Source: Escherichia coli (GTDB lineage Bacteria > Pseudomonadota > Gammaproteobacteria > Enterobacterales > Enterobacteriaceae). Taken from it: a DNA stretch of 64,000 nucleotides. Below, one piece after another: positions 1-41,964 of this stretch. Within the stretch, counting starts at the first letter, position 1. Every line of letters starts with the position of its first letter. The notes under the pieces were generated by a model. That model saw only the letters and a list, made by a program, of their open reading frames with translations, searched no databases and was not told the DNA's origin. Both the position numbers and the translations under genes were made by a program. Location: NCBI RefSeq assembly GCF_044324875.1, contig NZ_CP172185.1; one strand, given 5' to 3'.

Positions 1-513
1 GTAAGCGGCGGCGAAGCCACGACCCAACTGCCGTTTGTAGTGGCGCTGTTTACTGCTATAAAAAACGATCCGCAACTGCGCCACCTCACCTGCCTGGTGG
101 ACAGTAACGGTATGTTGAGCGAAACCGGCTGGGAAAAATTGCTCCCGGTGTGCGACGGCGCAATGCTCGATCTCAAAGCGTGGGGGAGCGAATGTCATCA
201 GCAATTAACCGGACGCGATAATCAGCAGATTAAGCGCAGCATCTGTTTGCTTACCGAACGCGGTAAGCTGGCGGAACTGCGTTTGCTGGTAATCCCTGGC
301 CAGGTGGATTATTTGCAACACATCGATGAGCTGGCGGCGTTTATCAAGGGACTTGGCGATGTTCCGGTACGCCTGAACGCGTTTCATGCCCACGGCGTGT
401 ATGGCGAGGCGCAAAGCTGGCCGAGTGCCACGCCGGAAGACGTTGAGCCATTGGCTGATGCGTTAAAGGTGCGCGGGGTGAGCCGGTTAATATTTCCGGC
501 GCTATATTTGTGA
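1..513 (+). CDS. yjjW: Glycyl-radical enzyme activating protein (radical SAM), C-terminal fragment; 5' end lies outside the window
   Basis: Frame 1 is open from base 1 to the stop at 513; the translation resembles the C-terminal half of PFL-activase-like proteins; synteny with yjjV/yjjU. Confidence 0.65.
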
Positions 514-514
514 C

Positions 515-1807
<1,293 letters not shown>

Positions 1808-8629: not shown

Positions 8630-8890
<261 letters not shown>

Positions 8891-9001: not shown

Positions 9002-9088
9002 GCGAAGGTGGCGGAATTGGTAGACGCGCTAGCTTCAGGTGTTAGTGTCCTTACGGACGTGGGGGTTCAAGTCCCCCCCCTCGCACCA
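9002..9088 (+). tRNA. leuV: tRNA-Leu (anticodon CAG), copy 1 of 3
   Basis: 87-nt sequence GCGAAGGTGGCGGAATTGGTAGACGCG...CTTCAGGTG...GGGGGTTCAAGTCCCCCCCCTCGCACCA with encoded CCA; first copy downstream of rsmC. Confidence 0.95.
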
Positions 9089-9116
9089 AAAACCACGTTG
9101 ATATTGCTCGCACTGG

Positions 9117-9203
9117 GCGAAGGTGGCGGAATTGGTAGACGCGCTAGCTTCAGGTGTTAGTGTTCTTACGGACGTGGGGGTTCAAGTCCCCCCCCTCGCA
9201 CCA
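9117..9203 (+). tRNA. leuP: tRNA-Leu (anticodon CAG), copy 2 of 3; one substitution in the variable arm (GTGTTCTTACGGAC)
   Basis: Same 87-nt tRNA with a single C-to-T difference relative to copy 1. Confidence 0.95.
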
Positions 9204-9237
9204 AACGAGGCGATATCAAAAAAAGTAAGACGACTGT

Positions 9238-9324
9238 GCGAAGGTGGCGGAATTGGTAGACGCGCTAGCTTCAGGTGTTAGTGTCCTTACGGACGTGGGG
9301 GTTCAAGTTCCCCCCCTCGCACCA
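9238..9324 (+). tRNA. leuQ: tRNA-Leu (anticodon CAG), copy 3 of 3; one substitution on the 3' side of the T-arm (TTCAAGTTCCCCCCC)
   Basis: Same 87-nt tRNA with a single C-to-T difference relative to copy 1. Confidence 0.95.
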
Positions 9325-11243: not shown

Positions 11244-11926
11244 TCTGCGGCATCTCCATAAACAGAAGGCAAGTTAAGTTCTCTTGCACCCTGCGCGCTA
11301 TTTATCCATGCATACATTTCAGCGTTGCTGTGAATTGCCAGTCGACGCATCGCACTGTTTTTTTGGGCGCTGATAGTTTTATTACTTTTCTTAAGCAATG
11401 AAGCTATCTGGTTGATGCCCCATCCTTTACCTAATAGCCGCAGTACCTTGCGCTCTGAAAGAGTGAGAATGACGGAGCGATAGCTAAAATCATGAGTTTC
11501 AGTCATTGCCGGAGAGGTCAGCATGGCGCTGATACGCTCTGCGTGCGTATTACCGGAACGTACGGTCTTGACCAGATTCTCAATGGGTTCAACATCAGAC
11601 AATAACGTCGCCGTAGGGCACATGAGCAATTCTACTGCCTGGGAATACCAGGATCGTGACACCATGAAAACCCAGTGAATTTCCCGATATTGTGAGATTA
11701 AAGAATAATAATGTTCACAAACAGAACGTGGATCTTCACTTTCACCGGCTAAATCAGCAATGACTAATCCGGAACGACGTAATTGTAATAAGGTAAGGTC
11801 CTCCGCAGAGGCGCTGGATATTATTTCATATTCAGGGAAGTGAGTCCTCATGACCTCTTTTAACCCTGCTTGCATAACAGGTATTTTACTGATAACAATT
11901 CCATTTTTGCAGCATCCTGGCAACAT
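11201..11926 (-). CDS. yjjQ: LuxR-family transcriptional regulator YjjQ
   Basis: 241-aa ORF with C-terminal LuxR-type HTH; yjjQ-bglJ operon arrangement with AT-rich upstream region. Confidence 0.85.
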
Positions 11927-12544
11927 ATTTCCTCCACATCCACTGTCTAAAAATTATGATGGTTTATTCAGGATATTCATTCCTTAAATGTTTCCAGCAA
12001 ATTAATAGATTAAGCGAATAAATTATCCTTAGCATTCACTTTCATATCAGCATACTCCTGCTGCACAACAACTCCACTGCATGTGTCAGAAGGTTAGCAT
12101 CAAATGATAACCTGGTGAAATAGCCTGGAGACATTTAAAATATCTACATTAAGTTGTTAGAAATACTTAATGAAAAACAGAATTCTCATTCATTTAATTT
12201 ATAATTAACTGATATCCCTTCCAGTAGAATGCAAAATCACACAATCAATATTTATTCAATAAAATCTGATAGTTTTAACTTGTAAAAATTAAAAAACGCG
12301 CCCAGTTATCTTTTATCCTGATTCGTAAAGGCTAAACAATAAATTTATTATAGTGATAATATTCATGTGATAATTTGTTTGCGGCGAGAGATAATTCGCT
12401 TTTTATCACCGAGCTTCTCCCGATAACCAGGATTAATCAGCGCAATTTTGATCTTAACCTACCGCAAAACAACCGTGCTTCATGATACAAATGGATTCTC
12501 ATTATCTGAACAATACGCAGCACGTCTATGACAAAGGGCGAGTT

Positions 12545-13315
12545 ATGCAAACTGAGCAACAGCGAGCCGTAACACGGCTTTGTATCCAGTGTGGATTATT
12601 TCTTTTGCAACATGGTGCGGAAAGCGCGTTGGTTGATGAGCTTTCCTCACGACTGGGTCGGGCGTTGGGGATGGACAGCGTCGAAAGTTCTATCTCTTCG
12701 AACGCCATAGTGCTGACAACCATTAAAGATGGGCAATGCCTGACATCGACACGTAAAAATCAAGATCGCGGCATTAATATGCATGTGGTGACTGAAGTCC
12801 AGCACATTGTGATTCTGGCGGAGCACCATCTGCTGGATTACAAAGGCGTAGAGAAACGATTTAGCCAAATTCAGCCATTACGTTACCCAAGATGGCTGGT
12901 AGCCTTAATGGTTGGCCTTTCTTGTGCCTGTTTCTGTAAACTCAATAAAGGTGGCTGGGATGGTGCCGTCATCACCTTCTTTGCCAGTACGGTCGCGATG
13001 TATATCCGCCAGCTGCTGGCACAACGTCATCTTCATCCACAAATCAACTTTTGCCTCACCGCTTTCGCCGCCACCACCATTTCCGGTTTGCTTTTGCAAC
13101 TCCCCACTTTCAGCAATACCCCCACCATTGCGATGGCCGCCAGCGTTCTGCTGCTGGTGCCGGGCTTTCCGTTGATTAATGCCGTCGCCGATATGTTTAA
13201 AGGCCACATCAATACCGGACTGGCACGCTGGGCGATCGCCAGTCTGCTGACACTGGCTACCTGCGTCGGCGTAGTGATGGCACTGACGATTTGGGGGCTA
13301 CGCGGATGGGTGTGA
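12545..13315 (+). CDS. yjjP: Inner-membrane protein YjjP (ThrE/DUF1212 family)
   Basis: Start placed at [12 protein letters not shown] (256 aa) inside the 277-aa track ORF; multi-TM protein. Confidence 0.75.
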
Positions 13316-13779
13316 TCGAATTTCTGTTAGCGTTGGCGCAGGATATGATCCTCGCCGCCATTCCTGCGGTCGGCTTTGCGATGGTGTTCAACGTTCCCGT
13401 TCGGGCGTTACGCTGGTGTGCGCTGCTTGGCTCGATAGGTCATGGTTCCCGAATGATCTTAATGACCAGCGGGCTGAATATTGAGTGGTCAACTTTTATG
13501 GCTTCTATGCTGGTCGGCACCATTGGTATTCAATGGTCGCGCTGGTATCTGGCGCATCCGAAAGTGTTTACCGTGGCGGCCGTTATCCCTATGTTCCCGG
13601 GCATATCGGCTTATACCGCAATGATTTCGGCGGTAAAAATCAGCCAGTTAGGTTACAGCGAACCGTTGATGATTACCCTGTTAACCAACTTTCTTACAGC
13701 TTCATCGATTGTTGGTGCGTTATCCATCGGTCTTTCCATTCCTGGATTATGGTTGTACCGCAAGCGCCCTCGCGTATAA
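13306..13779 (+). CDS. yjjB: Inner-membrane protein YjjB (DUF3815)
   Basis: 157-aa hydrophobic ORF from [12 protein letters not shown]; overlaps the yjjP 3' end. Confidence 0.75.
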
Positions 13780-27837: not shown

Positions 27838-27975
27838 AGCGACTCCTCTCTTTACGATCTGCTTTTCGTGCACTGATGATTCGAATGTTGGAAATAGCAT
27901 CACGTTTTAGGAAAAGATGGGGAAGTTGATATGAAAGGGCTGGATGGCAACATTGGGACACCATCCAGCACTTAT

Positions 27976-28710
27976 TCAAACCTGATAGCAATCCACCAAA
28001 AATGCCATCATTTCACTGGCATCTTTGCTGTGATAAAAGCGCACCATTTTGCTGTTGAACTCCAGCGCACGAGCTGCGGGTACACTAATTGGATTGTAAC
28101 CGTGGCGCATTAACCAGCCGTTCATCATATGGCGACTGGTACGCTTGTTGCCATCAAAGAAAAACTGAAAATAAGCACCAAATAAAAACATTGCCAGCGC
28201 CCCTTCGAACGGTGGCATCTCTTTTATTTGTGCCACACCTGCGGCGAATATTCGATTCAGTTCAGGTGCACCTGCTTCAGTGGCTGGTGGAAAATGGGTG
28301 CCCAGTTCACCGAGATGAACGCGCGCATTGTAATGCAACTCTTCACCTTCGCCGCGAAAAACGCCCCACTCCAGCGCCTCATTACGCGCAATAATGCCGT
28401 TAAGCAACGTGAACGTTTTCTTATCAAGATCGAAACGCCCGGATTGCACAAGTTCAATCAGTTTTTTTGCGCTATCTGCCAGGTTCAACACCTGCTCAGT
28501 ATCACTGACCTTATGCCCGCCAACGGTGACGCCATCGAGCAGCGTTTTAACTTCAACAAAGGTATAGGGGTTATTTTCCAGTTGCGCGGCATCCCAGACA
28601 AACCCTGCCATATGCGTTTTGAAGGTAAACAAGGCCGCGCGCGTACCGACAATTTGCATCGCCGGGATGGCATTTGCATTCCAGCTCAGGTCCAGTAGTT
28701 TGGTTGTCAT
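27976..28710 (-). CDS. Fic/Doc-fold protein with non-canonical active-site motif QFFFDGNKRTSR (Doc-like xFxDGNKR, His replaced by Gln)
   Basis: Motif comparison with Fic HPFx(D/E)GNGRxxR and Doc HxFx(D/N)(A/G)NKR; AAGGA ribosome-binding site upstream. Confidence 0.55.
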   Translation of the reverse strand: MTTKLLDLSWNANAIPAMQIVGTRAALFTFKTHMAGFVWDAAQLENNPYTFVEVKTLLDGVTVGGHKVSDTEQVLNLADSAKKLIELVQSGRFDLDKKTFTLLNGIIARNEALEWGVFRGEGEELHYNARVHLGELGTHFPPATEAGAPELNRIFAAGVAQIKEMPPFEGALAMFLFGAYFQFFFDGNKRTSRHMMNGWLMRHGYNPISVPAARALEFNSKMVRFYHSKDASEMMAFLVDCYQV

Positions 28711-28753
28711 TAGAGGATCCTTGATTGCATGGTAAAGAGGATATTATTCCATA

Positions 28754-30853
28754 TTAAACCATCGCGTTATCCATCTGCTTTTCAAATGCCTGACGAATTA
28801 ATCCCATCACATAAGGAAGCTCAGAAAGATCGCTGAAACCTACTTCAACATCGCCATTGCCCCAACGGCCTATATCTGTGACATCTTTAGCCATACATTT
28901 TGGGTCAACCAGTTCATGAAATGGCATATTTAGTGATAAACGTAAGCGACTTTTTTGCGGCACCACATCAACAAAATTCGTCTCCGCTTTGAAGGCAACA
29001 TAGAGCTTAAATATTTCTCGCGTAACCCCAGCGTCCAGCGCCATAACGGCATCAGAAAGGCTGTCAAAAAGTACGCGGATATGCGTACCTTCTTCAAGTT
29101 GTGGGAAATCAGCAAGGACATATCCCGTTCCTCGTTCAACGACAGTGCGATAACGAGCCAACACGTCTTCCGAAAGTTTGGGGATCGCCCAGACGTCTAT
29201 TGCCAGCTCGGCCAGACGTTCCGCTCTCTTTTGTATCGCTGCACGATCCCATATTTCACATTGCCCTAACCCCGTGTTCAGGCGTAATGGACTTTCCTTA
29301 AAGCCACCTTTTATATCTCGCTTCTTCGCAAATGGACGGTCGCTGTAGCTTGAGTTATAGCCAGTTAACGTTAAATTACCCAACGTATGGAGCCACTTTT
29401 TATGGATTCGCTTCCATTCCGGACCAAGGTCATCGCGCCACTTCGCCGATAAATTAGGGTTCTGCGGCATGATATGTTCAATCGTATAAGTGTCAACATA
29501 GGCCCGTTCTTTACGATCGTGGTTTTCAAATCTACGTAGCCAATAGCTGCGATTACGGAAGTTGTAGAGGTCGCGAGTTTTCAGTTCACGTTGAAATTCA
29601 TCATCATCCGGGAAACGACGGTAGGAAGGCAGTTCCAGCAAATGTGCCGCAATGCTCTCCAGATAACGCTCTTTATCCAGCACTTTGTAAAACGTGGCGA
29701 AGGTTTTAGTAAATGAGTTAGTGGGAATGGCACAGACTGCGCGCCGGAAGATATACGACTCAATTAAACGCGTGGCACTTAAAAAATCCGCGGCAGAAAG
29801 AATTCCCTGTTTATAGTCATGATAAAGCACCAACAGGAACGGCCAGGCAGCATCGACTTTCAGCTCGCGTAGATCCTGAAATGCCATCTTTAAGGTTTTA
29901 TCCTTTTCGCTATCCAGCGCCATCGCACAAAAATAGTCAGCAAACGTACGAATATCCGCAACCAGCGCCCCCATCCCGCGATCCATCACTCCTGGTTTTC
30001 GCGCATAGCGTTTAAAGGCTTCATAGACATCACCAATTCGCGGAATCTCACCTGTTTTTACCGTCAGATAATTACGCATAAAACTGTCGAAATAGTCAGT
30101 GTATCCCTTCTGACCAAACGCCAGCTCCATGGGCCGCGAGTAATCGTCGTACAGTTGGCTTTGATGTTCTGGCTCCAGCCCCATCAGAACATAGTTGCGA
30201 ACCAGATCCGCCTGACTCAGCGCTTTTCCTGTTGAGTTCATGCTTTCGAAGATTAGTTGCGGATTATCCTGACCGCGATTCAAGGCGACATCCACAATCA
30301 GCAGTTTGGAAAGTCCCTGACATAACGCGGTGAAATTGCCGTGGAGTTTGCCTATTTGCTCATGGAAAAACTCAAAATTCTCTTTCACGCGTAGAGAGCA
30401 ATTTTCTGCCAGCGGTTTTTGTCTAATCAATGCCAGCAGGCTTTCTCTGTCCGTTTGCGTGAGCAGTAACTTAAAACCACGCTCGCCCGATTCATACGGA
30501 TTGAGCAGATAATAGTTTCGTAATTTCATGGCGGAGAAACCATCCATCACCTCGTCATCGCCAAGATGTCTGGACAACGCTTCCAGCAATAACATCGCCG
30601 TTGTCAGGCGTTGCTGACCGTCAATCACCAGTAATGGCGAAATCCCCGAAACCTGATATATGCCCTGTTCGATATACACCACCGAGCCGATGAAATGCGC
30701 CGGGATATCATCACGCTGCCCGGCACGTATTACATCGTCCCAGAGCTGGCGGCACTGTTCCTCTGACCATGAATAAGTACGCTGATAAATGGGAATAACG
30801 AATTGCTGAGAGCGTTTTAGAAAATCGAGTAATCGGGCTTCGGTGGCTTTCAT
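28754..30853 (-). CDS. GmrSD-like type IV (modification-dependent) restriction endonuclease, DUF262 (ParB-like NTPase) + DUF1524 (His-Me finger nuclease)
   Basis: N-terminal DGQQR motif (LLVIDGQQRLTT), C-terminal HIMPQNP His-Me-type motif; 699 aa; AGGAG ribosome-binding site. Confidence 0.7.
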   Translation of the reverse strand: MKATEARLLDFLKRSQQFVIPIYQRTYSWSEEQCRQLWDDVIRAGQRDDIPAHFIGSVVYIEQGIYQVSGISPLLVIDGQQRLTTAMLLLEALSRHLGDDEVMDGFSAMKLRNYYLLNPYESGERGFKLLLTQTDRESLLALIRQKPLAENCSLRVKENFEFFHEQIGKLHGNFTALCQGLSKLLIVDVALNRGQDNPQLIFESMNSTGKALSQADLVRNYVLMGLEPEHQSQLYDDYSRPMELAFGQKGYTDYFDSFMRNYLTVKTGEIPRIGDVYEAFKRYARKPGVMDRGMGALVADIRTFADYFCAMALDSEKDKTLKMAFQDLRELKVDAAWPFLLVLYHDYKQGILSAADFLSATRLIESYIFRRAVCAIPTNSFTKTFATFYKVLDKERYLESIAAHLLELPSYRRFPDDDEFQRELKTRDLYNFRNRSYWLRRFENHDRKERAYVDTYTIEHIMPQNPNLSAKWRDDLGPEWKRIHKKWLHTLGNLTLTGYNSSYSDRPFAKKRDIKGGFKESPLRLNTGLGQCEIWDRAAIQKRAERLAELAIDVWAIPKLSEDVLARYRTVVERGTGYVLADFPQLEEGTHIRVLFDSLSDAVMALDAGVTREIFKLYVAFKAETNFVDVVPQKSRLRLSLNMPFHELVDPKCMAKDVTDIGRWGNGDVEVGFSDLSELPYVMGLIRQAFEKQMDNAMV

Positions 30854-31137
30854 GAATGACTCCTGTCAAATTGCGCTGGCAAACGGTGTCATTATGCTGC
30901 GAATAAAAAATAAAAGTTAGCGTCTTTGTTTCTGCAAAAATACCATTCCAGGATAAATCAAAATATATTAAGAAACACCTCAAAACGCATTCATTAGAAC
31001 AATTAATATTTTCAATTCATATTTATAACGCATTGAAAATGATCGTGTTTTTGATCATCACAGCAATAGTTTGATATAACAAAGCATTCACTTCACATTG
31101 AATATCTCCCTCTTTTTCAGGGCAAGGAATGCTTTTT

Positions 31138-33483
31138 ATGTCATCAACTAATTTCAGTCAGATTGCAGCCTTCCTGTGGTCTGTCGCCGACCTGTTACGC
31201 GGCGATTTTAAACAATCACAATATGGGCGAATTATTCTCCCTTTCACTCTTCTTCGTCGTCTGGAATGCGTACTCGAAACAACGAAAGACGCGGTCATTG
31301 CCGAGGCGCAAAAAGTAAAAGCCATGAAACTGCCGGAGGAAGCCCAGGAGAAAATGATCCTGCGGGCGACTAATGGCCTCACGTTCTTTAATGCCTCAGC
31401 GATGGATCTCAGCAAAATGGGGCAAAATGGCATACAGGACAACCTGGAAAACTACATCCAGTCGTTCTCTTCGGATGCCCGCGAAATTTTCGAACACTTC
31501 AAGTTCAGCGAGTTTGTCGGACAGCTGGCGGATGCGAACTTGCTGTTCAAAGTGGTGCAAATATTCGCTAAAGCAGATTTATACCCGGAGCACGTCACCA
31601 ACCACGATATGGGGCTGGTGTTTGAGGAGCTGATCCGCCGTTTTGCCGAGAGTTCAAACGAAACCGCCGGGGAGCACTTTACCCCGCGTGATATCGTCAA
31701 TCTGACCACCTCGCTGGTGTTTTTCGATGATGATGATGCGCTCAATAAAGACGGCATCATCCGCACCATTTACGATCCAACGGCAGGAACCGGCGGCTTT
31801 CTCTCCTCCGGCATGGAGTACGTCCATAAACAAAACCCCAATGCCGTGATGCGCGCGTTTGGTCAGGAGTTAAACCCGGAATCCTACGCCATCTGCAAAG
31901 CCGACATGCTGATTAAGGGCCAGGACGTCAGCCTTATCAAACTCGGCAATACCCTTTCCAACGATCAACTCCCCGCAGAAAAATTTGATTACATGCTTTC
32001 TAATCCACCTTTCGGCGTGGACTGGAAAAAGATAGAAACCGACATCAACAACGAGCACAAACTCAAAGGTGCTGATGGTCGCTTTGGCCCCGGCCTGCCC
32101 CGCGTCTCTGACGGTTCGTTGCTGTTTCTGCTGCACCTGATCAGCAAAATGCGCGATGCCAAAAGCGGTGGCGGGCGGATCGGCATCATTCTTAATGGTT
32201 CCCCATTATTTACCGGCGGCGCGGGCAGCGGTGAAAGCGAGATCCGCCGCTACATTCTGGAAGCGGATTTGCTGGAAGGCATTATCGCCCTGCCCACCGA
32301 CATGTTTTACAACACCGGTATCGCTACCTATGTTTGGGTGCTGTCCAACAAAAAAGCGCCAGAACGCAAAGGCAAAGTCCAGCTTATCGACGGCAGCAAC
32401 CTGTGCGGCAAGATGCGTAAATCGCTGGGGTCAAAACGCAATATTCTCGGAGACGAGGATATTGGTTTAATCACCCGCACGTTTGGCGATTTCGAACCCG
32501 TTGCCACCACTACGCTTGCGGCGTTAGGCCTGGAGAAAGCACCCGAACAAAAATCCAGCCGGGGACGCCAGCCCGCAACAACCAAAACCGAGGCGGCAAA
32601 AACTTTTGCCAGCAAAGTCTTTCACAGCACCGAGTTTGGCTATCGTCGCATCACCGTTGAGCGCCCGTTACGCCTGTCGGCTCAGATAAGTGATGACGCC
32701 ATTGCCACATTACGTTTTGCGCCGAAGCCGTTTAACGCTCCGATGGCGCAACTGTATGACGCCTTTGCTTTCCAGTGGCAGGACGGTCATTACGGCGACT
32801 TAACAGCGGTAGAAAGTGAAGCCCGCGCCATTCTTAAAGCCGATTTTAGCGAGCTGAAAGAGAAGCAAATTAAAGATCTGCTCGACAGCAAATTATGGCT
32901 GGCCCAGCGCGGGTTAATGGAAAAAGCGCGGCGTATTCAGGCGGCGATGGGTATGCAGGCGGGCGGCAAAGACACCGTTAGCAATGACTTTAATCAGTTC
33001 CAGTTGACGCTGAAAGAGGCGTTCAAAACCGCAGGCGTGAAGCTGGATGCGAAAGAGAACAAGCAGTTTATCGATGCTATCACCCGCAAAAACCCGGACG
33101 CCGAGCCGGTAGTCAGCAAGGTACTGAAAGAAGCGGCCCAACCGTTGTACGGCGCGTTTGAGTACCACGGAAAGGTTGTGGAGTTTGAGCCGGATGGCGA
33201 CCTGCGTGATAACGAGAATGTGCCGTTAAATCCGGCGGTATCTACCAGCGAGTTGATCGAGGGTTACTTCAAAGCAGAAGTATTGCCGCACGTCGCGGAT
33301 GCGTGGATTAACGCCGATAAGCGCGATGCGAAAGATGGGGATATCGGGATTGTGGGGTATGAAATTCCGTTTAATCGCCATTTTTATGTTTATCAACCGC
33401 CAAGGCCGCTGGAGGAGATTGATGCGGATCTGGATGCAGTAAGCGCTGAAATTATGAAACTGTTGCAGGAGGTACATTCCTGA
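31138..33483 (+). CDS. hsdM: Type I restriction-modification system methyltransferase subunit HsdM (unusually long, ~781 aa)
   Basis: N6-adenine MTase motifs ([10 protein letters not shown] motif I, NPPFG motif IV); canonical HsdM N- and C-termini; start placed at the ATG 9 nt downstream of AAGGAA. Confidence 0.9.
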
Positions 33484-34772
33484 TGGCAGGGTTAAATAAA
33501 TATCAGGCGTATCCGGAGTATAGGGATTCTGGGGTGGAGTGGATCGATGCAATCCCTTTTCATTGGGAAGTGCTACCAACATTTTCTCTATGTGAGGCAT
33601 CGACGAAGAAAAATATCGATGGAGCAGAAAACAATGTGCTCTCATTGAGTTATGGAAAAATTATTCCCAGAGATATAGAAACAAACTTCGGGCTTTTACC
33701 AGAGTCATTTAATACTTATCAAATCGTTGAAAATGGCGATATTATTTTAAGATTAACTGATCTACAAAATGATAAAAACAGTTTACGCGTAGGATTAGTC
33801 AAACAAAAAGGGATTATTACATCTGCATATTTAAAACTCAATTCACAAGGAAGTATGCTATCCGAATATTTATATCGCCTACTTCATTCATATGATACGA
33901 CTAAAGTTTTTTATGGCATGGGAGGAGGGCTGAGACAATCAATGAAATTTGAGGATTTCAGAAGATTGCCCTTACTGCTTCCATCGAAAAACGAACAGGG
34001 AAAAATAATTGATTTCCTCGACCACGAAACAGCAAAAATCGATAACCTGATCGAAAAACAACAACAACTTATTGAACTACTGAAAGAAAAACGTCAGGCA
34101 GTGATTAGCCATGCGGTGACCAAAGGGCTAAATCCTGATGTGCCGATGAAAGATTCTGGGGTTGAGTGGTTGGGTGAAGTTCCGAAACACTGGCACATAT
34201 GCAAGTTAAAATGGTTTGCTAATTTGAAAAGTGGTGATTTTATAACCAGCAATTCAATAGAACCAGAAGGAAACTATCCTGTTTATGGTGGAAATGGATT
34301 AAGAGGATATTATTCTCATTTTACACACAATGGTGAATATGTTCTTATTGGTAGACAAGGTGCTCTTTGCGGAAATATAAATTACGCAATTGGAAAATTT
34401 TGGGCTTCAGAACATGCTGTTGTTGTCACCCCAAACGAAAGAGCTGTTACAATATGGTTAGGAGAATTATTAAGAATAATGAACTTAAACCAATATTCAG
34501 TTTCTGCTGCACAACCGGGGCTTGCGGTTGAAAGAATTACTGATTTATATATTCCAATCCCACCATATCAAGAGCAAATAAATATCGGAACTTATATATC
34601 TAAATATATTTCTCTAGATAAAAAATTGATTGAGCATAGTACAGATAATATTGAACTCCTAAAAGAACGCCGCACCGCCCTTATCTCCGCCGCCGTCACC
34701 GGCAAAATCGACCTACGCAACTGGACCGCGCCCATCCCCGAAGCGGAAACACCCACGGAGGTCAGCGCATGA
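33483..34772 (+). CDS. hsdS: Type I R-M specificity subunit HsdS (two target-recognition domains)
   Basis: Duplicated conserved segments (DSGVEWIDAIPFHWEV / DSGVEWLGEVPKHWHI) flank two variable AT-rich TRDs; start overlaps the hsdM stop (TGATG). Confidence 0.9.
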   Translation: MAGLNKYQAYPEYRDSGVEWIDAIPFHWEVLPTFSLCEASTKKNIDGAENNVLSLSYGKIIPRDIETNFGLLPESFNTYQIVENGDIILRLTDLQNDKNSLRVGLVKQKGIITSAYLKLNSQGSMLSEYLYRLLHSYDTTKVFYGMGGGLRQSMKFEDFRRLPLLLPSKNEQGKIIDFLDHETAKIDNLIEKQQQLIELLKEKRQAVISHAVTKGLNPDVPMKDSGVEWLGEVPKHWHICKLKWFANLKSGDFITSNSIEPEGNYPVYGGNGLRGYYSHFTHNGEYVLIGRQGALCGNINYAIGKFWASEHAVVVTPNERAVTIWLGELLRIMNLNQYSVSAAQPGLAVERITDLYIPIPPYQEQINIGTYISKYISLDKKLIEHSTDNIELLKERRTALISAAVTGKIDLRNWTAPIPEAETPTEVSA

Positions 34773-37700
34773 GCAACGACATAACAAAAGAGATCAACCT
34801 GCAAAACGACATCATCGCGCAGATGGCAGAAAAAGGCTGGATTGTCGGCAAAGGTGACGGCTACGACCGGGAACGAGCACTATACGCACAGGATACCTTA
34901 AACTTCGTACAAACCACCCAACCGCAAGAGTGGGAAAAATTCGCCCGCGTTTACCCCAACGACACCGAGCGCCATTTCCTCGACGCACTGGTCGCGCAGC
35001 TTAAAAAAGCCGACAGCAACGCCACCGATATTCAGTCGCGCACCAGGGGTACGCTCGGCGTACTTCGCCACGGCCTGAAAATCCGCAATGCCCGTTTTTC
35101 GCTGTGCCAGTTTAAACCGGAACATAATCTCAACCCGGAAACGCTGGCGCGCTATCAGCAGAATATCTGCCGCATTGTGCCGGAACTGATCTACAGCCCT
35201 TATGCCTCAAATAGCGTCTTTGCAGAAACGGGCGTGAAAGCCAAAAAATGGCGCATCGACCTGGTGCTGTTTATCAACGGCCTGCCAATTGCCACGCTGG
35301 AGCTGAAATCCGAATTCAAACAGGCGGTGCAGAACGCCATTGCGCAGTATAAAAAAACCCGCCTGCCGAAAGATCCCGCTACCAATAAGCCCGAACCGCT
35401 GCTGACCTTCAAGCGCGGGGCGCTGGTGCATTTTGCCGTCAGCCAGTATGACGTTTATATGACCACCAAACTCGTGGGTGACAGCACCTTCTTCCTGCCG
35501 TTTAACAAAGGCACCAAAGATGGTGGTGCAGGCAATGAGATCCCCGAAGATACCCACCGCTACGCCACCGATTATCTGTGGAATGAAGTACTGCTGCCGG
35601 ACAACTTATTAAAAATCCTCGCCAGTTTTGTCCATTTGCAGATTGAAGAAAAAGAGGAGTGGAACGGGCTGAAAGCGAAGAAAGAGAGCCTGATTTTCCC
35701 GCGCTATCACCAGTGGGATGTAGTCAACAAACTGCTGGAGGCCGCGACGGTCGAAGGCACCGGCCATAAATACCTGATCCAGCACAGCGCAGGTTCCGGA
35801 AAGTCGAACTCCATTGCCTGGACCGCCCACCAGCTTTCTCGTCTGTACGACGCAAACGGGGAAAAACAGTTTCATTCTGTTATCGTGGTGACGGACCGCA
35901 CAGTGCTGGACGACCAGCTTCAGGACGCCATCTGGCAGTTCGAGCACGCCGACGGCGTGGTCGGGCGCATCAATAATAGAGAGGGCGATGGCTCTAAATC
36001 GGAAAAGCTCGCCAACGCGCTGGAAAACTCGCAACCGATTATTATTGTCACCATCCAGACGTTCCCGTTCGTATTGAAAGCTATCGAAAACAGTGTCAGC
36101 CTGAAGCAGCGTAAATATGCGGTGATTGCCGACGAAGCACACTCCTCGCAGAGCGGTTCTACCGCCCGTCAGCTTAAAGAAGTGCTGATGAGCGAAGAGA
36201 TGGATGATGACGTGGTACTGTCGTCAGAAGATATTCTGGATGCGACCATCGCTGCACGGAAAGGCAGCAGTAACCTGAACTACTACGCCTTTACCGCCAC
36301 GCCAAAATCCAAAACCCTGGAACTCTTTGGTCGCTGTCCGCGTCCCGATGAGCCGGCCTCAAAAACCAATAAACCTGAGGCCTTCCACGTCTACTCCATG
36401 CGCCAGGCAATCGAAGAAGGCTTTATCCTCGACGTGCTGAAAAACTACACCAACTACAAAGTGGCGTATCAGTTGCTGCAAAAGCTGGAAGACAAGGACC
36501 GCGAAGTCGACAGCAAAAAGGCAAAGATAAAGCTCAACCAATGGGTGACACTGCACGACCACAACATCTCGCAGAAGGTGAAGGTGATTGTGGAGCACTT
36601 CCGCAAACATGTGATGCACCTGCTTGGCGGCCAGGCTAAAGCGATGGTGGTCACCAGTTCACGCAAAGCCGCTGTGCGCTACAAGCTGGCGTTTGATAAA
36701 TACATTAGCGAGAACAATTACCAGAAAATCAGCGCGATGGTGGCATTTTCCGGGGAAGTTGAATTCCAGGAAGGCGACCATAACAGCCTGGCATTGTTAA
36801 AGCAGAAATTTACTGAAATAAACATGAACCCCGGCCTGAAAGGGCGGGATATGCGCAAAGCCTTCGACAGCGATGATTATCAGGTGATGTTGGTCGCCAA
36901 TAAATTCCAGACCGGTTTTGACCAGCCAAAGCTGTGCGCGATGTACGTGGATAAACCCCTCGGTGGCGTCGAGTGCGTGCAGACACTCTCCCGCCTGAAC
37001 CGCACCTATCCGGGCAAAGCGGAATCGGGCACTTTTGTCCTCGATTTTTATAATGATCCGGACGAGATCCTCGGCGCATTCCAGCCCTATTTCCAGACGG
37101 CGGAACTGACCGATGTCAGCGATCCGCAGCAGGTATTCGATCTGTTTGAAAAACTGCGCGCCACGCAGATTTTTCAGTGGCATGAAGTCGAGCAGTTCTG
37201 CGAGGCGTACTTCATCAAAAATAAATCGAATGCGGCGATCAGTAATATCTGTAAACCGGCGGTCGAACGCTGGAAAAAGCGTTATCTGATGGCAATAGAC
37301 GCCTATTTGACCGCCAAAGAGATGTTCGAGCGCACTAAAAAAACGGGCGATACGGTGTTAATCACCAATGCGGAAAACAGTTTTAAAGCCTGTAAGCAGG
37401 AGAAAGATCGTCTGGAGATTTTCAAGAAAGATCTCGGCAGCTTTGTTCGCTTTTATGAGTTTATGTCGCAAATCGTTGAGTACGATGACAAGGATCTGGA
37501 AAAGCTAAGCCTGTTTGCCCGTCATCTGCGTCCGCTGCTGCATGAGCAACGTCTGGAAGAGGATGAAATTGATCTCAGTAATGTGGAGATGAGTCACTAT
37601 CGTTTATCGAAAATCCATGAGCAAGATTTACGCTTACAGGAAGAAACGTCTGACTATACGCTGGATGCAAGTAATGATATTGGTACGGCAAAAGCGAAAG

Positions 37701-38032
37701 ATAAAAAAGAGGAGTTTTTATCGCAGGTGCTTTCTCGGATGAATGAATTATTCATTAGCGACCATTTGACCGACAAAGATATGATCAGCAATGCTTTTGC
37801 GGTGTATAACAAAATAACTGAAAATGAAAATGTTATGACACAAATTAAAAACAATCCGCCAGAACAAGCGATTCTTGGTGATTTCCTCCAGGCAGTTGAT
37901 AATGCTGTAATGGACAGTAATGACGCTCGGCAAGAATTTATGTTGCAATATTTATCCGATCCAGTTCGGGCAAAGGGCTTTGCTTATCTGATGTTTGATA
38001 TGCTCACGGGGAAAATTGCTTTGCCAACATAA
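34769..38032 (+). CDS. hsdR: Type I R-M restriction subunit HsdR (SF2 helicase/endonuclease)
   Basis: Walker A (SAGSGKSNS) and DEAH box (IADEAHSSQ); 1087 aa; ATGA overlap with the hsdS stop. Confidence 0.9.
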   Translation: MSNDITKEINLQNDIIAQMAEKGWIVGKGDGYDRERALYAQDTLNFVQTTQPQEWEKFARVYPNDTERHFLDALVAQLKKADSNATDIQSRTRGTLGVLRHGLKIRNARFSLCQFKPEHNLNPETLARYQQNICRIVPELIYSPYASNSVFAETGVKAKKWRIDLVLFINGLPIATLELKSEFKQAVQNAIAQYKKTRLPKDPATNKPEPLLTFKRGALVHFAVSQYDVYMTTKLVGDSTFFLPFNKGTKDGGAGNEIPEDTHRYATDYLWNEVLLPDNLLKILASFVHLQIEEKEEWNGLKAKKESLIFPRYHQWDVVNKLLEAATVEGTGHKYLIQHSAGSGKSNSIAWTAHQLSRLYDANGEKQFHSVIVVTDRTVLDDQLQDAIWQFEHADGVVGRINNREGDGSKSEKLANALENSQPIIIVTIQTFPFVLKAIENSVSLKQRKYAVIADEAHSSQSGSTARQLKEVLMSEEMDDDVVLSSEDILDATIAARKGSSNLNYYAFTATPKSKTLELFGRCPRPDEPASKTNKPEAFHVYSMRQAIEEGFILDVLKNYTNYKVAYQLLQKLEDKDREVDSKKAKIKLNQWVTLHDHNISQKVKVIVEHFRKHVMHLLGGQAKAMVVTSSRKAAVRYKLAFDKYISENNYQKISAMVAFSGEVEFQEGDHNSLALLKQKFTEINMNPGLKGRDMRKAFDSDDYQVMLVANKFQTGFDQPKLCAMYVDKPLGGVECVQTLSRLNRTYPGKAESGTFVLDFYNDPDEILGAFQPYFQTAELTDVSDPQQVFDLFEKLRATQIFQWHEVEQFCEAYFIKNKSNAAISNICKPAVERWKKRYLMAIDAYLTAKEMFERTKKTGDTVLITNAENSFKACKQEKDRLEIFKKDLGSFVRFYEFMSQIVEYDDKDLEKLSLFARHLRPLLHEQRLEEDEIDLSNVEMSHYRLSKIHEQDLRLQEETSDYTLDASNDIGTAKAKDKKEEFLSQVLSRMNELFISDHLTDKDMISNAFAVYNKITENENVMTQIKNNPPEQAILGDFLQAVDNAVMDSNDARQEFMLQYLSDPVRAKGFAYLMFDMLTGKIALPT

Positions 38033-38096
38033 AACACGTTGATAGCCGGGGTCGCACTTTCTACCCCGGCCATATTGTTTACAATAAGGAATAGCT

Positions 38097-38810
38097 ATGC
38101 TGAAGATGATTAAAGATTTTAAATTCAAAAAATACATTAAAAAATTACGTGAAGAAGGTTTGTTTTTTTATGTTTCTTTCGGTTTTATATTTACATTGTT
38201 AATGGAAGTTGATAATCAATTACCATACTATCTTCAACAAGACTTCTTCTTTTATACACTTATAGGATTTATGCCAATCAATATATTCTTTGTTTTGATT
38301 TGCACAAATGTATTTTTCAATGCCGCCCACACACTTATTTCACCTTATAAAGGTCAAAGAGTTGGTGAGAAATTTCTCTCTGAACTTGATAAAAGAACGC
38401 AACAAATTGGCTTTATTATTTCATTTATATGTTTTGGCATGACATTGTTTTGTGCTCTGGCGTGGTTGCTGTTTTTTGAGATGAATAATGAAAGTTACTA
38501 CGCAAAATATACATTAGATTTTTTGGCTGTTTTTATCATTATGATTATGTTTTCTTCAGCAGTTAATCCAGTCATGAGAAGAATATTCCAAAAAATGAAG
38601 GGATCGGACTCACATGGAAATTCAAAAATAATTCTTATAATTATAATCATTGTGTTATTGCTATTATTGCCAATTGCGTACATTATCAATAAAAATAAAA
38701 CAATTGAAATCAATATTAAGAAAGAAACTTATCAGCAAATAAAAGAAAAAACAAAGATGAAACCAGAAGATTATATCAAAAAATTGATTGCTGATATTAA
38801 ATTCAACTAA
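38097..38810 (+). CDS. Low-GC multi-pass membrane protein of unknown function (237 aa)
   Basis: Strongly AT-rich ORF with several hydrophobic segments and a Lys-rich C-terminus; AAGGAA ribosome-binding site; 64 bp downstream of hsdR. Confidence 0.55.
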   Translation: MLKMIKDFKFKKYIKKLREEGLFFYVSFGFIFTLLMEVDNQLPYYLQQDFFFYTLIGFMPINIFFVLICTNVFFNAAHTLISPYKGQRVGEKFLSELDKRTQQIGFIISFICFGMTLFCALAWLLFFEMNNESYYAKYTLDFLAVFIIMIMFSSAVNPVMRRIFQKMKGSDSHGNSKIILIIIIIVLLLLLPIAYIINKNKTIEINIKKETYQQIKEKTKMKPEDYIKKLIADIKFN

Positions 38811-38886
38811 TATCTATATGTACCCTGGTTTCTTCCTGGGTACATATAAAAAGTTAATATCCTGATTTATTCTCAACATCCCCCCA

Positions 38887-40882: not shown

Positions 40883-41964
40883 TTAGTACTCGATCCATGG
40901 ATCGCGCTTGCTTTCAGGCAAGGGCTGATCTAATGCCTGCATTTGCTCTGCCGAAAGTCCGGTATATCGTTGTATCCATTCAGGATCCGCCCCATTCTGC
41001 AACAACAATCGGAGGAGGCTCCGTTCCCCTTCTACTTTCCCTTCTTTCCTCCCCCTCTCCCTTCCCAACAGCCATCCATCATTATGAATTCGCTCTGCAA
41101 TCGTCATTATTCGCTCCCTTTGTTGTGGCATTCGACTGGTTAGTTCGCTGATAAACTCTTTAAAACGCGCTTCATCGCCAGTCAGTAAAATGTAATTTAA
41201 CAGCGCAGTTATCTGGCTGTCATTAGTACACTCTGTAACCAGTAATACTACCAGTTGGTCGATAAGCCCCATCAGATCGCGCTGGCGAATATGCTTTTGG
41301 ATCAACTCCAACAGGGCGACTCTGCGGTGCTGCACAATCTCGTCGTCTGGCACGACAGTGATATCCACCAGCGGGAACGCGGCGGTATATACTCGTCATA
41401 CTTCAAGTTGCATGTGCTGCGACTGCGTTCATTCACCCCAGTCACTTACTTTTGTAAGCTCCTGGGGATTCACTCACTTGTCGCCTTCCTGCAACTTGAA
41501 TTATTTAGAGTATAAAGCTTCCGTGCGGTGGTCGGGTCAGCAAATTCGTCCAGCCAGCACAGGGACCAGGGGTAAGGACTACGGCTACCGTGATAAAACA
41601 GCATCGGGATGACCAGCGGTAGCGGCCGGCGTTTATCATGCTCGATATGGCGCTGCATCACCGCCATGGAATATCGCATCAGGCGAAAGGCCATATGGAT
41701 ATCCTCGCGGCTCTGATGTTCAATCACTACGTAAATATAACCATCACCTTCACGGGTCTTTACCGACCACAGAATATCAGAGTGTAGCGCCCGCAATTTT
41801 TCATCGACAAAGCTGGCGGATTCCAGTTTTAAGCTGTCGAGATCGCACAATTCACGTAAATCTATTGGTAAGTGGATCTCCATAAAATCCCGCGCGGTGT
41901 CAGGGTGGGTGAGAAAGGATTTAAATAATGCGTCATGCGGCGTACTGGTCGTGAAGTTTGTCAT
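40883..41964 (-). pseudogene. rpnD: Rpn-family (YhgA-like, PD-(D/E)XK) recombination-promoting nuclease gene disrupted by a frameshift
   Basis: N-terminal part (41470..41964) and C-terminal part (40883..41368 and its upstream in-frame extension) lie in different frames on the same strand; matches the yjiP/yjiQ split in K-12. Confidence 0.75.

Follow-up and report, generated by a model that had tools for sequence, protein, structure and literature searches.

A type I restriction-modification operon with a long HsdM subunit from the Escherichia coli immigration control region: a predicted member of a widespread family outside types IA to ID

The immigration control region of Escherichia coli is a classic variable restriction locus that is usually described with type I restriction-modification (R-M) systems of types IA, IB, and ID (PMC12707154). 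At this site, K-12 harbors the type IA system EcoKI in the gene order hsdR-hsdM-hsdS (R-M-S) plus mrr and mcrBC, O157 Sakai harbors an R-M-S system classified as type IB (PMC2490747), and the ST131 strain EC958 carries EcoMII in M-S-R order, a type ID system whose R subunit is 92% identical to that of StySBLI (PMC4659465). A related system is encoded on VPI-2 of Vibrio cholerae by VC1769 (hsdM), VC1768 (hsdS), VC1767-66 (tgvAB), and VC1765 (hsdR); it methylates GATGN6CTT, and plasmids with this motif are subject to hsdR-dependent restriction (PMC11411939). Here, we describe an hsdM-hsdS-hsdR operon on the plus strand at 31138-38032 of a 64,000-nucleotide stretch of E. coli DNA (contig NZ_CP172185.1; hereafter the window, to which all positions refer). 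The operon is very likely an intact, predicted functional type I R-M system that belongs to a widespread family outside types IA, IB, IC, and ID and constitutes one allele of the immigration control region.

The gene order and the two gene overlaps stated in a first-pass annotation of the window were borne out by the list of open reading frames (ORFs) and by the raw sequence. One base is shared at the hsdM/hsdS junction (TGATG, in TCC-TGA-TGG) and four bases are shared at the hsdS/hsdR junction (ATGA, in GCA-TGA-GCA); a GGAGG precedes either junction. The R-M-S arrangement given there for EcoKI agreed with the K-12 locus, but M-S-R cannot be called unusual, because the type ID system of EC958 has the same order. 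Type IC systems are arranged as M-S-R, too. An alternative in-frame ATG at 31129 would extend HsdM to 784 amino acids (aa). It was considered the less likely start because AGGA lies 9 nucleotides (nt) before the ATG at 31138 and because the RefSeq orthologue comprises 781 aa. Relative to the E. coli A37 copy, which is 96% identical at the nucleotide level, the ratio of nonsynonymous to synonymous differences (pN/pS) was 0.067 for hsdM and 0.061 for hsdR. Both are real, constrained genes under strong purifying selection and not chance ORFs.

PADLOC assigned HsdM, HsdS, and HsdR alike as type I components, so that M, S, and R are all represented. For HsdM, the PADLOC model MTase_I PDLC03029 covered residues 2-780 (E = 5e-281), and Pfam recognized HsdM_N (residues 9-143) and N6_Mtase (residues 155-455, E = 1e-57). 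Motif I is present as DPTAGTGG at residues 213-220 and motif IV as NPPF at residues 289-292 (NPPFG, 289-293). With its S-adenosylmethionine motif and NPPF, and with a fold matching solved HsdM structures, the protein classifies as a gamma-class N6-adenine methyltransferase; among the structures matched were the M2S1-type entries 2y7c and 7bst of the Protein Data Bank (PDB). HsdS was matched over its full length by Specificity_I of PADLOC (E = 2e-113). HsdR comprises the Pfam domains HSDR_N, ResIII, SWI2_SNF2, and T1R_D3-like. Its candidate nuclease residues Asp164 and Glu178-Leu-Lys180 conform to PD-(D/E)xK, and GSGKS (342-346), DEAH (455-458), TATP (509-512), and QTLSRLNR (738-745) are the motifs of a superfamily 2 helicase motor.

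As a rule of thumb, type I subunits are more than 70% identical within a family and less than 30% identical between families (PMC10030836). HsdM and HsdR were 27 and 23% identical, respectively, to their counterparts of type IA from K-12 and 28 and 24% identical to those of type ID from EC958 (EcoMII), in both cases only in the cores. Compared with type IB from O157 Sakai, core identity was 25% for HsdM, and HsdR showed 31% identity across just 81 residues. When the chains of the type IC enzyme EcoR124I in the PDB were compared by phmmer, only residues 151-457 of HsdM (E = 7e-26) and 65 residues of HsdR (693-757, E = 1e-11) were matched. Similarity of HsdS to the type ID HsdS of EC958 was not detectable. 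At the sequence level, the operon is placed outside types IA, IB, IC, and ID. The proposal of a distinct type I family made in the first-pass annotation was sound insofar as M and R reach just 23-31% identity with the IA, IB, and ID cores and resemble IC weakly. The family is not an unusual one, however; it is common and already modeled.

HsdM comprises 781 aa, compared with 529 aa in EcoKI, 489 aa in the type IB system of O157, and 539 aa in the type ID system of EC958, a surplus of 242-292 aa. The extra sequence noted earlier behind the NPPFG core was thus confirmed. Solved HsdM structures and Pfam reach only from residue 1 to about residue 457, and all PADLOC type I methylase models except PDLC03029 match only the first ~450 residues. 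"Unusually long" is an apt description relative to the four classical E. coli families. It does not apply within the protein's own very large, cross-phylum family, where the same length and the same module are found throughout; 781 aa is therefore a normal length and a family trait.

The structure of the part following the catalytic domain (Table 1) was predicted by AlphaFold2 (AF2) with a predicted local distance difference test score of 88 for the whole protein and of 92 for residues 486-781 alone. According to the models, the catalytic domain would be followed by a disordered linker, a conserved beta-rich module into which a variable helical bundle is inserted, and a terminal helix. The alignments revealed a conserved segment at residues 493-512, poor conservation at about residues 519-648, and a conserved distal part that precedes the terminal helix. 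The distal part is characterized by the motifs ExDxDLRDxENVPL and EVLPHVxDAWI, followed by a conserved segment of 22 letters ahead of the helix. The beta parts of the extension are conserved as strongly as the catalytic domain, whereas the bundle and the linker are not, and the bundle region is much shorter in members of ~650 aa from Streptomyces and elsewhere. By region, pN/pS was 0.031 for the core and 0.125 for residues 456-757. Neither Pfam nor PDB searches yielded a counterpart of the extension. The "conserved C-terminal tail" of the first-pass annotation does exist at residues 740-762 and is kept within the family, but its motif is absent from the HsdM proteins of types IA, IB, and ID; it is a family marker rather than a general feature of HsdM.

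The helix at the C terminus of HsdM runs along the coiled coil of HsdS in EcoKI and EcoR124I, as described in PMC3510504 and in PMC10030836, the latter quoting Gao et al. 2020. By analogy, we infer that helix 758-780 docks on the HsdS coiled coil. If its role is the same as in these enzymes, the extension represents an insertion between the catalytic domain and this helix. The extension is most likely a structural or assembly module specific to the family, in contact with HsdS, HsdR, or DNA.

How widespread is this arrangement? In a search of 5.8 billion proteins, the best 120 homologues of HsdM were all at least 81% identical to it, and nearly all had 780-797 aa, the exceptions being two short forms and one M-S fusion of 1021 aa. 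Most were labeled "type I restriction-modification system subunit M". The organisms named at source were E. coli, Salmonella, Citrobacter, Serratia, Yersinia, Klebsiella, Enterobacter, Pantoea, Xenorhabdus, and Edwardsiella, all with the Enterobacterales, and Vibrio. When residues 451-781 were used as the query against 1.84 billion cluster representatives, 2391 matches were obtained at E <= 1e-3, of which 1014 remained at E <= 1e-10, with full-length members of 640-800 aa. Nearly full-length homologues were also present in 173 plasmid records from Proteobacteria, Actinobacteria, Bacteroidetes, and Firmicutes. HsdM from the window carries the module that marks these proteins (FGYxxITVERP ... 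DLRDxENVPL ... GYEIxFNRxFY, with invariant or near-invariant motif columns in alignments A1-A3) and is matched by PDLC03029 over its full length. Distant members with 40-50% identity retain both the M-S-(insert)-R order and the HsdR architecture. An M-S-R operon with an optional insert before hsdR, encoding an HsdR with HSDR_N, ResIII, SWI2_SNF2, and T1R_D3-like domains, was found in the window, in the distant relative L004, in Pseudomonas loci L005-L007, and in V. cholerae. Because distant members and V. cholerae keep the M-S-R order, this order and the tight coupling are considered family traits. On these comparisons, the operon family is widespread, distinct from the four classical families, and already recognized by annotation tools.

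In the Pseudomonas loci L005-L007, which are related to the V. cholerae-type system, a 547-aa SLFN_AlbA_2/HATPase_c_4 gene (11766-13409) is situated between hsdS and hsdR. As tgvAB of V. cholerae occupies the same position, additional defense genes seem to have been inserted there repeatedly.

The V. cholerae proteins were compared by means of the partial sequences given in Table S4 of PMC11411939. VC1769 was 37% identical to HsdM over residues 1-367, and VC1765 was 37% identical to HsdR over residues 9-399. VC1769 was 81% identical to P0202, a Pseudomonas HsdM of 799 aa, the C-terminal 290 residues of which match the HsdM extension (E = 4e-28). V. cholerae methylases were also found among the structural matches to the extension. 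The idea that the operon is unusual fails because the family is large, already modeled, and routinely annotated and has a functional relative. The first-pass annotation had itself allowed for a common and characterized family. This held in part: the family is common and experiments have been done on a relative (PMC11411939), although the extension itself is uncharacterized.

The component that sets this copy apart is, as judged from the comparison of alleles, HsdS. Residues 174-429, comprising the central conserved region, the second target recognition domain (TRD2), and the distal conserved region, were nearly identical to the allele of E. coli A37, whereas TRD1 was unrelated. Coverage of hsdS never exceeded 64% in any complete E. 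coli genome. The GC content is 38% for hsdS and 35% for its TRDs, compared with 50-52% for hsdM and hsdR. A TRD swap between HsdS alleles would be the usual shuffling of active type I systems. Because TRD1 is unmatched in complete E. coli genomes, a new specificity is suggested. The alleles imply a target whose second half-site would be common with a frequent E. coli allele and whose first half-site would be new to complete genomes.

The foremost alternative concerns the name of the family. The operon could be a type IE system, with KpnBI from Klebsiella pneumoniae as the prototype, and the long HsdM and the M-S junction would then be type IE traits. An orthologue from K. pneumoniae (P0061, 786 aa) is indeed 82% identical to HsdM. 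The KpnBI hsdM, as Chin and co-workers are said to have described it in 2004, is unusually long (2631 bp), overlaps hsdS by 1 base, and has a promoter upstream, and the subunits are reportedly 25-33% identical to those of types IA-ID. The values of 23-31% obtained in this work for IA, IB, and ID agree with that account, but the length said to be encoded by KpnBI hsdM (876 aa) deviates from the 781-787 aa found in this family. Furthermore, a 1-base overlap of hsdM and hsdS is not diagnostic, as EcoKI has one according to PMC3510504, and there are other long HsdM families with unrelated extensions: several other PADLOC type I methylase models are 800-930 positions long, and models of 810-932 positions match only residues 1-455 of HsdM. 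A type IE assignment is possible but doubtful.

A different question is whether the extension acts on its own. It might be an accessory domain with an activity such as sensing, contact with DNA or HsdR for restriction alleviation, or binding of an anti-restriction decoy, and the family would then work unlike classical type I systems. The suggestion of an inserted accessory domain is structurally reasonable, since the terminal helix is separated from the catalytic domain by ~270 well-folded residues without a Pfam or PDB match. However, these residues contain no recognized catalytic or ligand-binding motif, and they show no marked charge bias, which might have pointed to DNA binding or DNA mimicry. 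The helical bundle, poorly conserved as it is, is largely missing in the ~650-aa members. Occurrence of the extension in non-methylase contexts was considered and rejected: in a Foldseek comparison with AFDB50, the best 50 of 253 matches at E <= 0.001 were adenine methyltransferases, bar one unnamed protein. Restriction of the module to methyltransferases among these fold matches is expected for an integral structural part. In addition, the V. cholerae relative acts as a conventional type I system (PMC11411939). A domain with an activity of its own is an unlikely reading, and the extension is probably not a separately acting accessory domain. A further, tentative proposal is that the extension changes how the family assembles or controls restriction, for example by docking or gating HsdR, whose gene in this family would share the coupled transcript and have no promoter to itself. 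The family would then be a mechanistically distinct, unnamed type I family, and the allele in the window would in addition have a new specificity through its unmatched TRD1. This combination, too, is considered rather improbable. A family-specific structural or assembly module, as set out above, remains the preferred reading.

Two homologues, P0123 and P0134 (1130-1148 aa), differ in their C termini. The normal HsdM tail is swapped for an extra domain of ~400 aa (columns ~950-1388 of alignment A1) with an R-x4-H motif (ATDLRNDIAHRG) that recalls HEPN nucleases. These proteins may be HsdM-effector fusions.

The operon is flanked by btsT, yjiX, yjiA, and brnA on the left and by yjiS, yjiR, rpn, mdtM, yjiN, and yjiM on the right. 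With yjiA on one side and yjiR on the other, the site corresponds to the immigration control region. By megablast, the hsdMSR block was detected in 116 of 5426 complete E. coli genomes and was nearly full length in 114 of them; it was always single and always chromosomal. The pieces to its left (genes for a Fic family and a GmrSD-like protein) and to its right (the 237-aa ORF) were each covered to 80% or more in exactly 114 genomes. Joint presence in 114 genomes indicates that the unit is a cassette of ~11 kb, extending from about 27,890 to 38,880. The features of the cassette are collected in Table 1.

Table 1. Features of the hsdMSR cassette and of the proteins encoded by the operon (nucleotide positions in the window)
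Feature	Nucleotides	Residues	Strand	Remarks
Fic family protein	27976-28710		-	244 aa; left end of cassette; annotation of RefSeq orthologue
GmrSD-like protein (DUF262/DUF1524-type)	28754-30853		-	699 aa, intact; putative type IV restriction enzyme; divergent from hsdM
Putative sigma-70 promoter of hsdMSR	31051-31080		+	TTGATC, 18 nt, TGaTATAAC (extended -10); read by eye
hsdM	31138-33483		+	781 aa; N6-adenine DNA methyltransferase subunit
HsdM linker		469-484		Predicted disordered (AF2)
HsdM C-terminal extension	32593-33408	486-757	+	~270 aa
HsdM beta strands		489-515		Predicted (AF2)
HsdM helical bundle		519-648		Predicted (AF2)
HsdM beta/alpha elements		649-748		Predicted (AF2)
HsdM terminal helix	33409-33477	758-780	+	Predicted long helix; seen in both AF2 models
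hsdS	33483-34772		+	429 aa; specificity subunit; two TRDs and two conserved helical regions
HsdS TRD1	33540-33992	~20-170	+	From allele comparison
HsdS conserved regions		~174-233 and 375-413	+	Central and distal
hsdR	34769-38032		+	1087 aa; restriction/translocase subunit
Low-GC (27%) ORF	38097-38810		+	237 aa; right end of cassette; predicted multi-pass membrane protein

The GmrSD-like protein was matched by Orf5 of PADLOC (E = 8e-213) and also by HEC-06 and mREase_IV, and its RefSeq orthologue is annotated as a GmrSD domain protein. Its last ~110 residues, apart from the Orf5/HEC-06 body, match the PADLOC candidate PDC-S18. The Fic protein was matched by PHROG 11900 (E = 3e-43) and weakly by PDC-S24 of PADLOC. 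For the 237-aa ORF, no match was found in NCBIfam, PADLOC, or PHROG, and the Pfam matches were weak and of transmembrane type. It occurs in exactly the 114 cassette-bearing genomes and showed no similarity to the 239-aa ORF located downstream of hsdR in L004; it could be an accessory defense gene or a hitchhiker.

It is very improbable that the operon has decayed or is left with methylation only, or that it is another defense system reusing type I-like parts, such as MADS: the NCBIfam matches to MAD2 (53 bits) and MAD5 (18 bits) are far below the respective cut-offs of 720 and 400 bits, other MADS genes are not among the neighbors, PADLOC takes all three proteins for type I parts, and the three full-length ORFs retain every nuclease, helicase, and methylase motif at a pN/pS of ~0.06. 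The curated NCBIfam models for hsdM and hsdR were, on the other hand, likewise below their cut-offs (90 versus 243 bits and 183 versus 285 bits), a point in favor of such alternatives. This shortfall also weighs against an intact and functional system of the kind proposed here, in that the subunits are atypical of the curated equivalogs. So do the facts that the putative hsdM promoter was recognized solely by eye and that the GmrSD orthologue is broken by IS4 in some E. coli genomes (A37), showing that parts of the cassette can decay.

With respect to expression, a consensus promoter scan reported no site upstream of hsdM, and its overall counts were not above those of shuffled sequences. The candidate listed in Table 1 was missed because the scan demands T at the last position of the -10 element. 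An inverted repeat, ATGATC-8 nt-GATCAT, is present at 31039-31058; two Dam GATC sites fall within it, and it shares bases with the putative -35 element. As its arms measure 6 bp, it may have arisen by chance.

Taking the operon as an intact type I system, its operation can be outlined as follows. A single promoter upstream of hsdM probably drives one hsdMSR transcript, from which translational coupling would yield M, then S, and then R. Following established type I biology, M2S1 would methylate N6 of one adenine per strand of a bipartite target, the choice of which is governed by the two HsdS TRDs, and at an unmethylated target R2M2S1 would translocate DNA at the expense of ATP and cut at a distance. 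With hsdR predicted to have no promoter of its own, a naive host that receives the operon would have to be protected by the sequence in which the subunits are made and by control after translation. Phages that evade type I restriction because their DNA is hypermodified would be dealt with by the divergently encoded GmrSD-like enzyme. This argument has been proposed before, for tgvAB in V. cholerae (PMC11411939) and for GmrSD homologues of the immigration control region (PMC4437046).

The annotation remains unchanged by these results, as public pipelines already call a type I R-M operon. What emerges is that ~2% of complete E. coli genomes carry a fourth family at this site, where it is accompanied by a linked GmrSD-like type IV enzyme, and that the HsdM extension is a large, widespread, and well-folded module without a structural or functional description. 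The HsdS allele probably specifies a recognition sequence new to E. coli, which matters for transformation barriers and for the interpretation of methylomes in the carrier lineage.

Further along the window, genes outside the cassette were noted. Adjacent ORFs of 161 and 164 aa on the minus strand (40883-41964) stand where other E. coli have a single gene for an Rpn family recombination-promoting nuclease, which suggests that this rpn copy is split or frameshifted. A low-GC gene for a 696-aa pentapeptide-repeat protein (47604-49694, plus strand) occupies the position of EspX6, a type III secretion system effector-like protein, in O157 Sakai. The position of the Sakai invasin ECs_5290 is taken by a 1746-aa IatC-like inverse autotransporter/invasin (52249-57489, plus strand). 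Neither of these two proteins had a PADLOC match. Rfam detected seven naRNA4 (CssrE) copies on the minus strand and three tandem tRNA genes on the plus strand at 552-1032, 8669-8862, and 9002-9321.

Among the known systems, EcoKI (IA) and the O157 allele (IB) resemble the operon as alternative occupants of the immigration control region with the same subunit logic. They differ from it in the R-M-S order, in their shorter HsdM proteins, and in the absence of the C-terminal motif. In type IC systems, hsdR has its own promoter; in the window, hsdR overlaps hsdS by 4 bases. The HsdM core of EcoR124I (IC) superposes on that of HsdM with a template modeling score of 0.5-0.6, normalized to the target, but EcoR124I HsdM has only 520 aa. 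EcoMII of type ID shares with the operon its chromosomal site, beside yjiA/brnA in the immigration control region, as well as the M-S-R order, and possesses an HsdR of 1087 aa, an agreement in length that is coincidental; its HsdM lacks the extension. Membership in type ID, suspected from the shared site, gene order, and HsdR length, was ruled out by the identity of 24-28%.

The V. cholerae system differs in that 37% identity falls between the levels within (>70%) and between (<30%) families, in that tgvAB is located between hsdS and hsdR whereas the GmrSD-like gene lies upstream of and divergent from hsdM in the window, and in its HsdS and hence its target. It resembles the operon in its M-S-...-R order, in the lysine of the nuclease ExK motif (Lys172 there, Lys180 here), in the linkage to a type IV enzyme of the GmrSD family, and, as seen via P0202 and the V. 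cholerae fold matches, in a long HsdM with the same C-terminal module.

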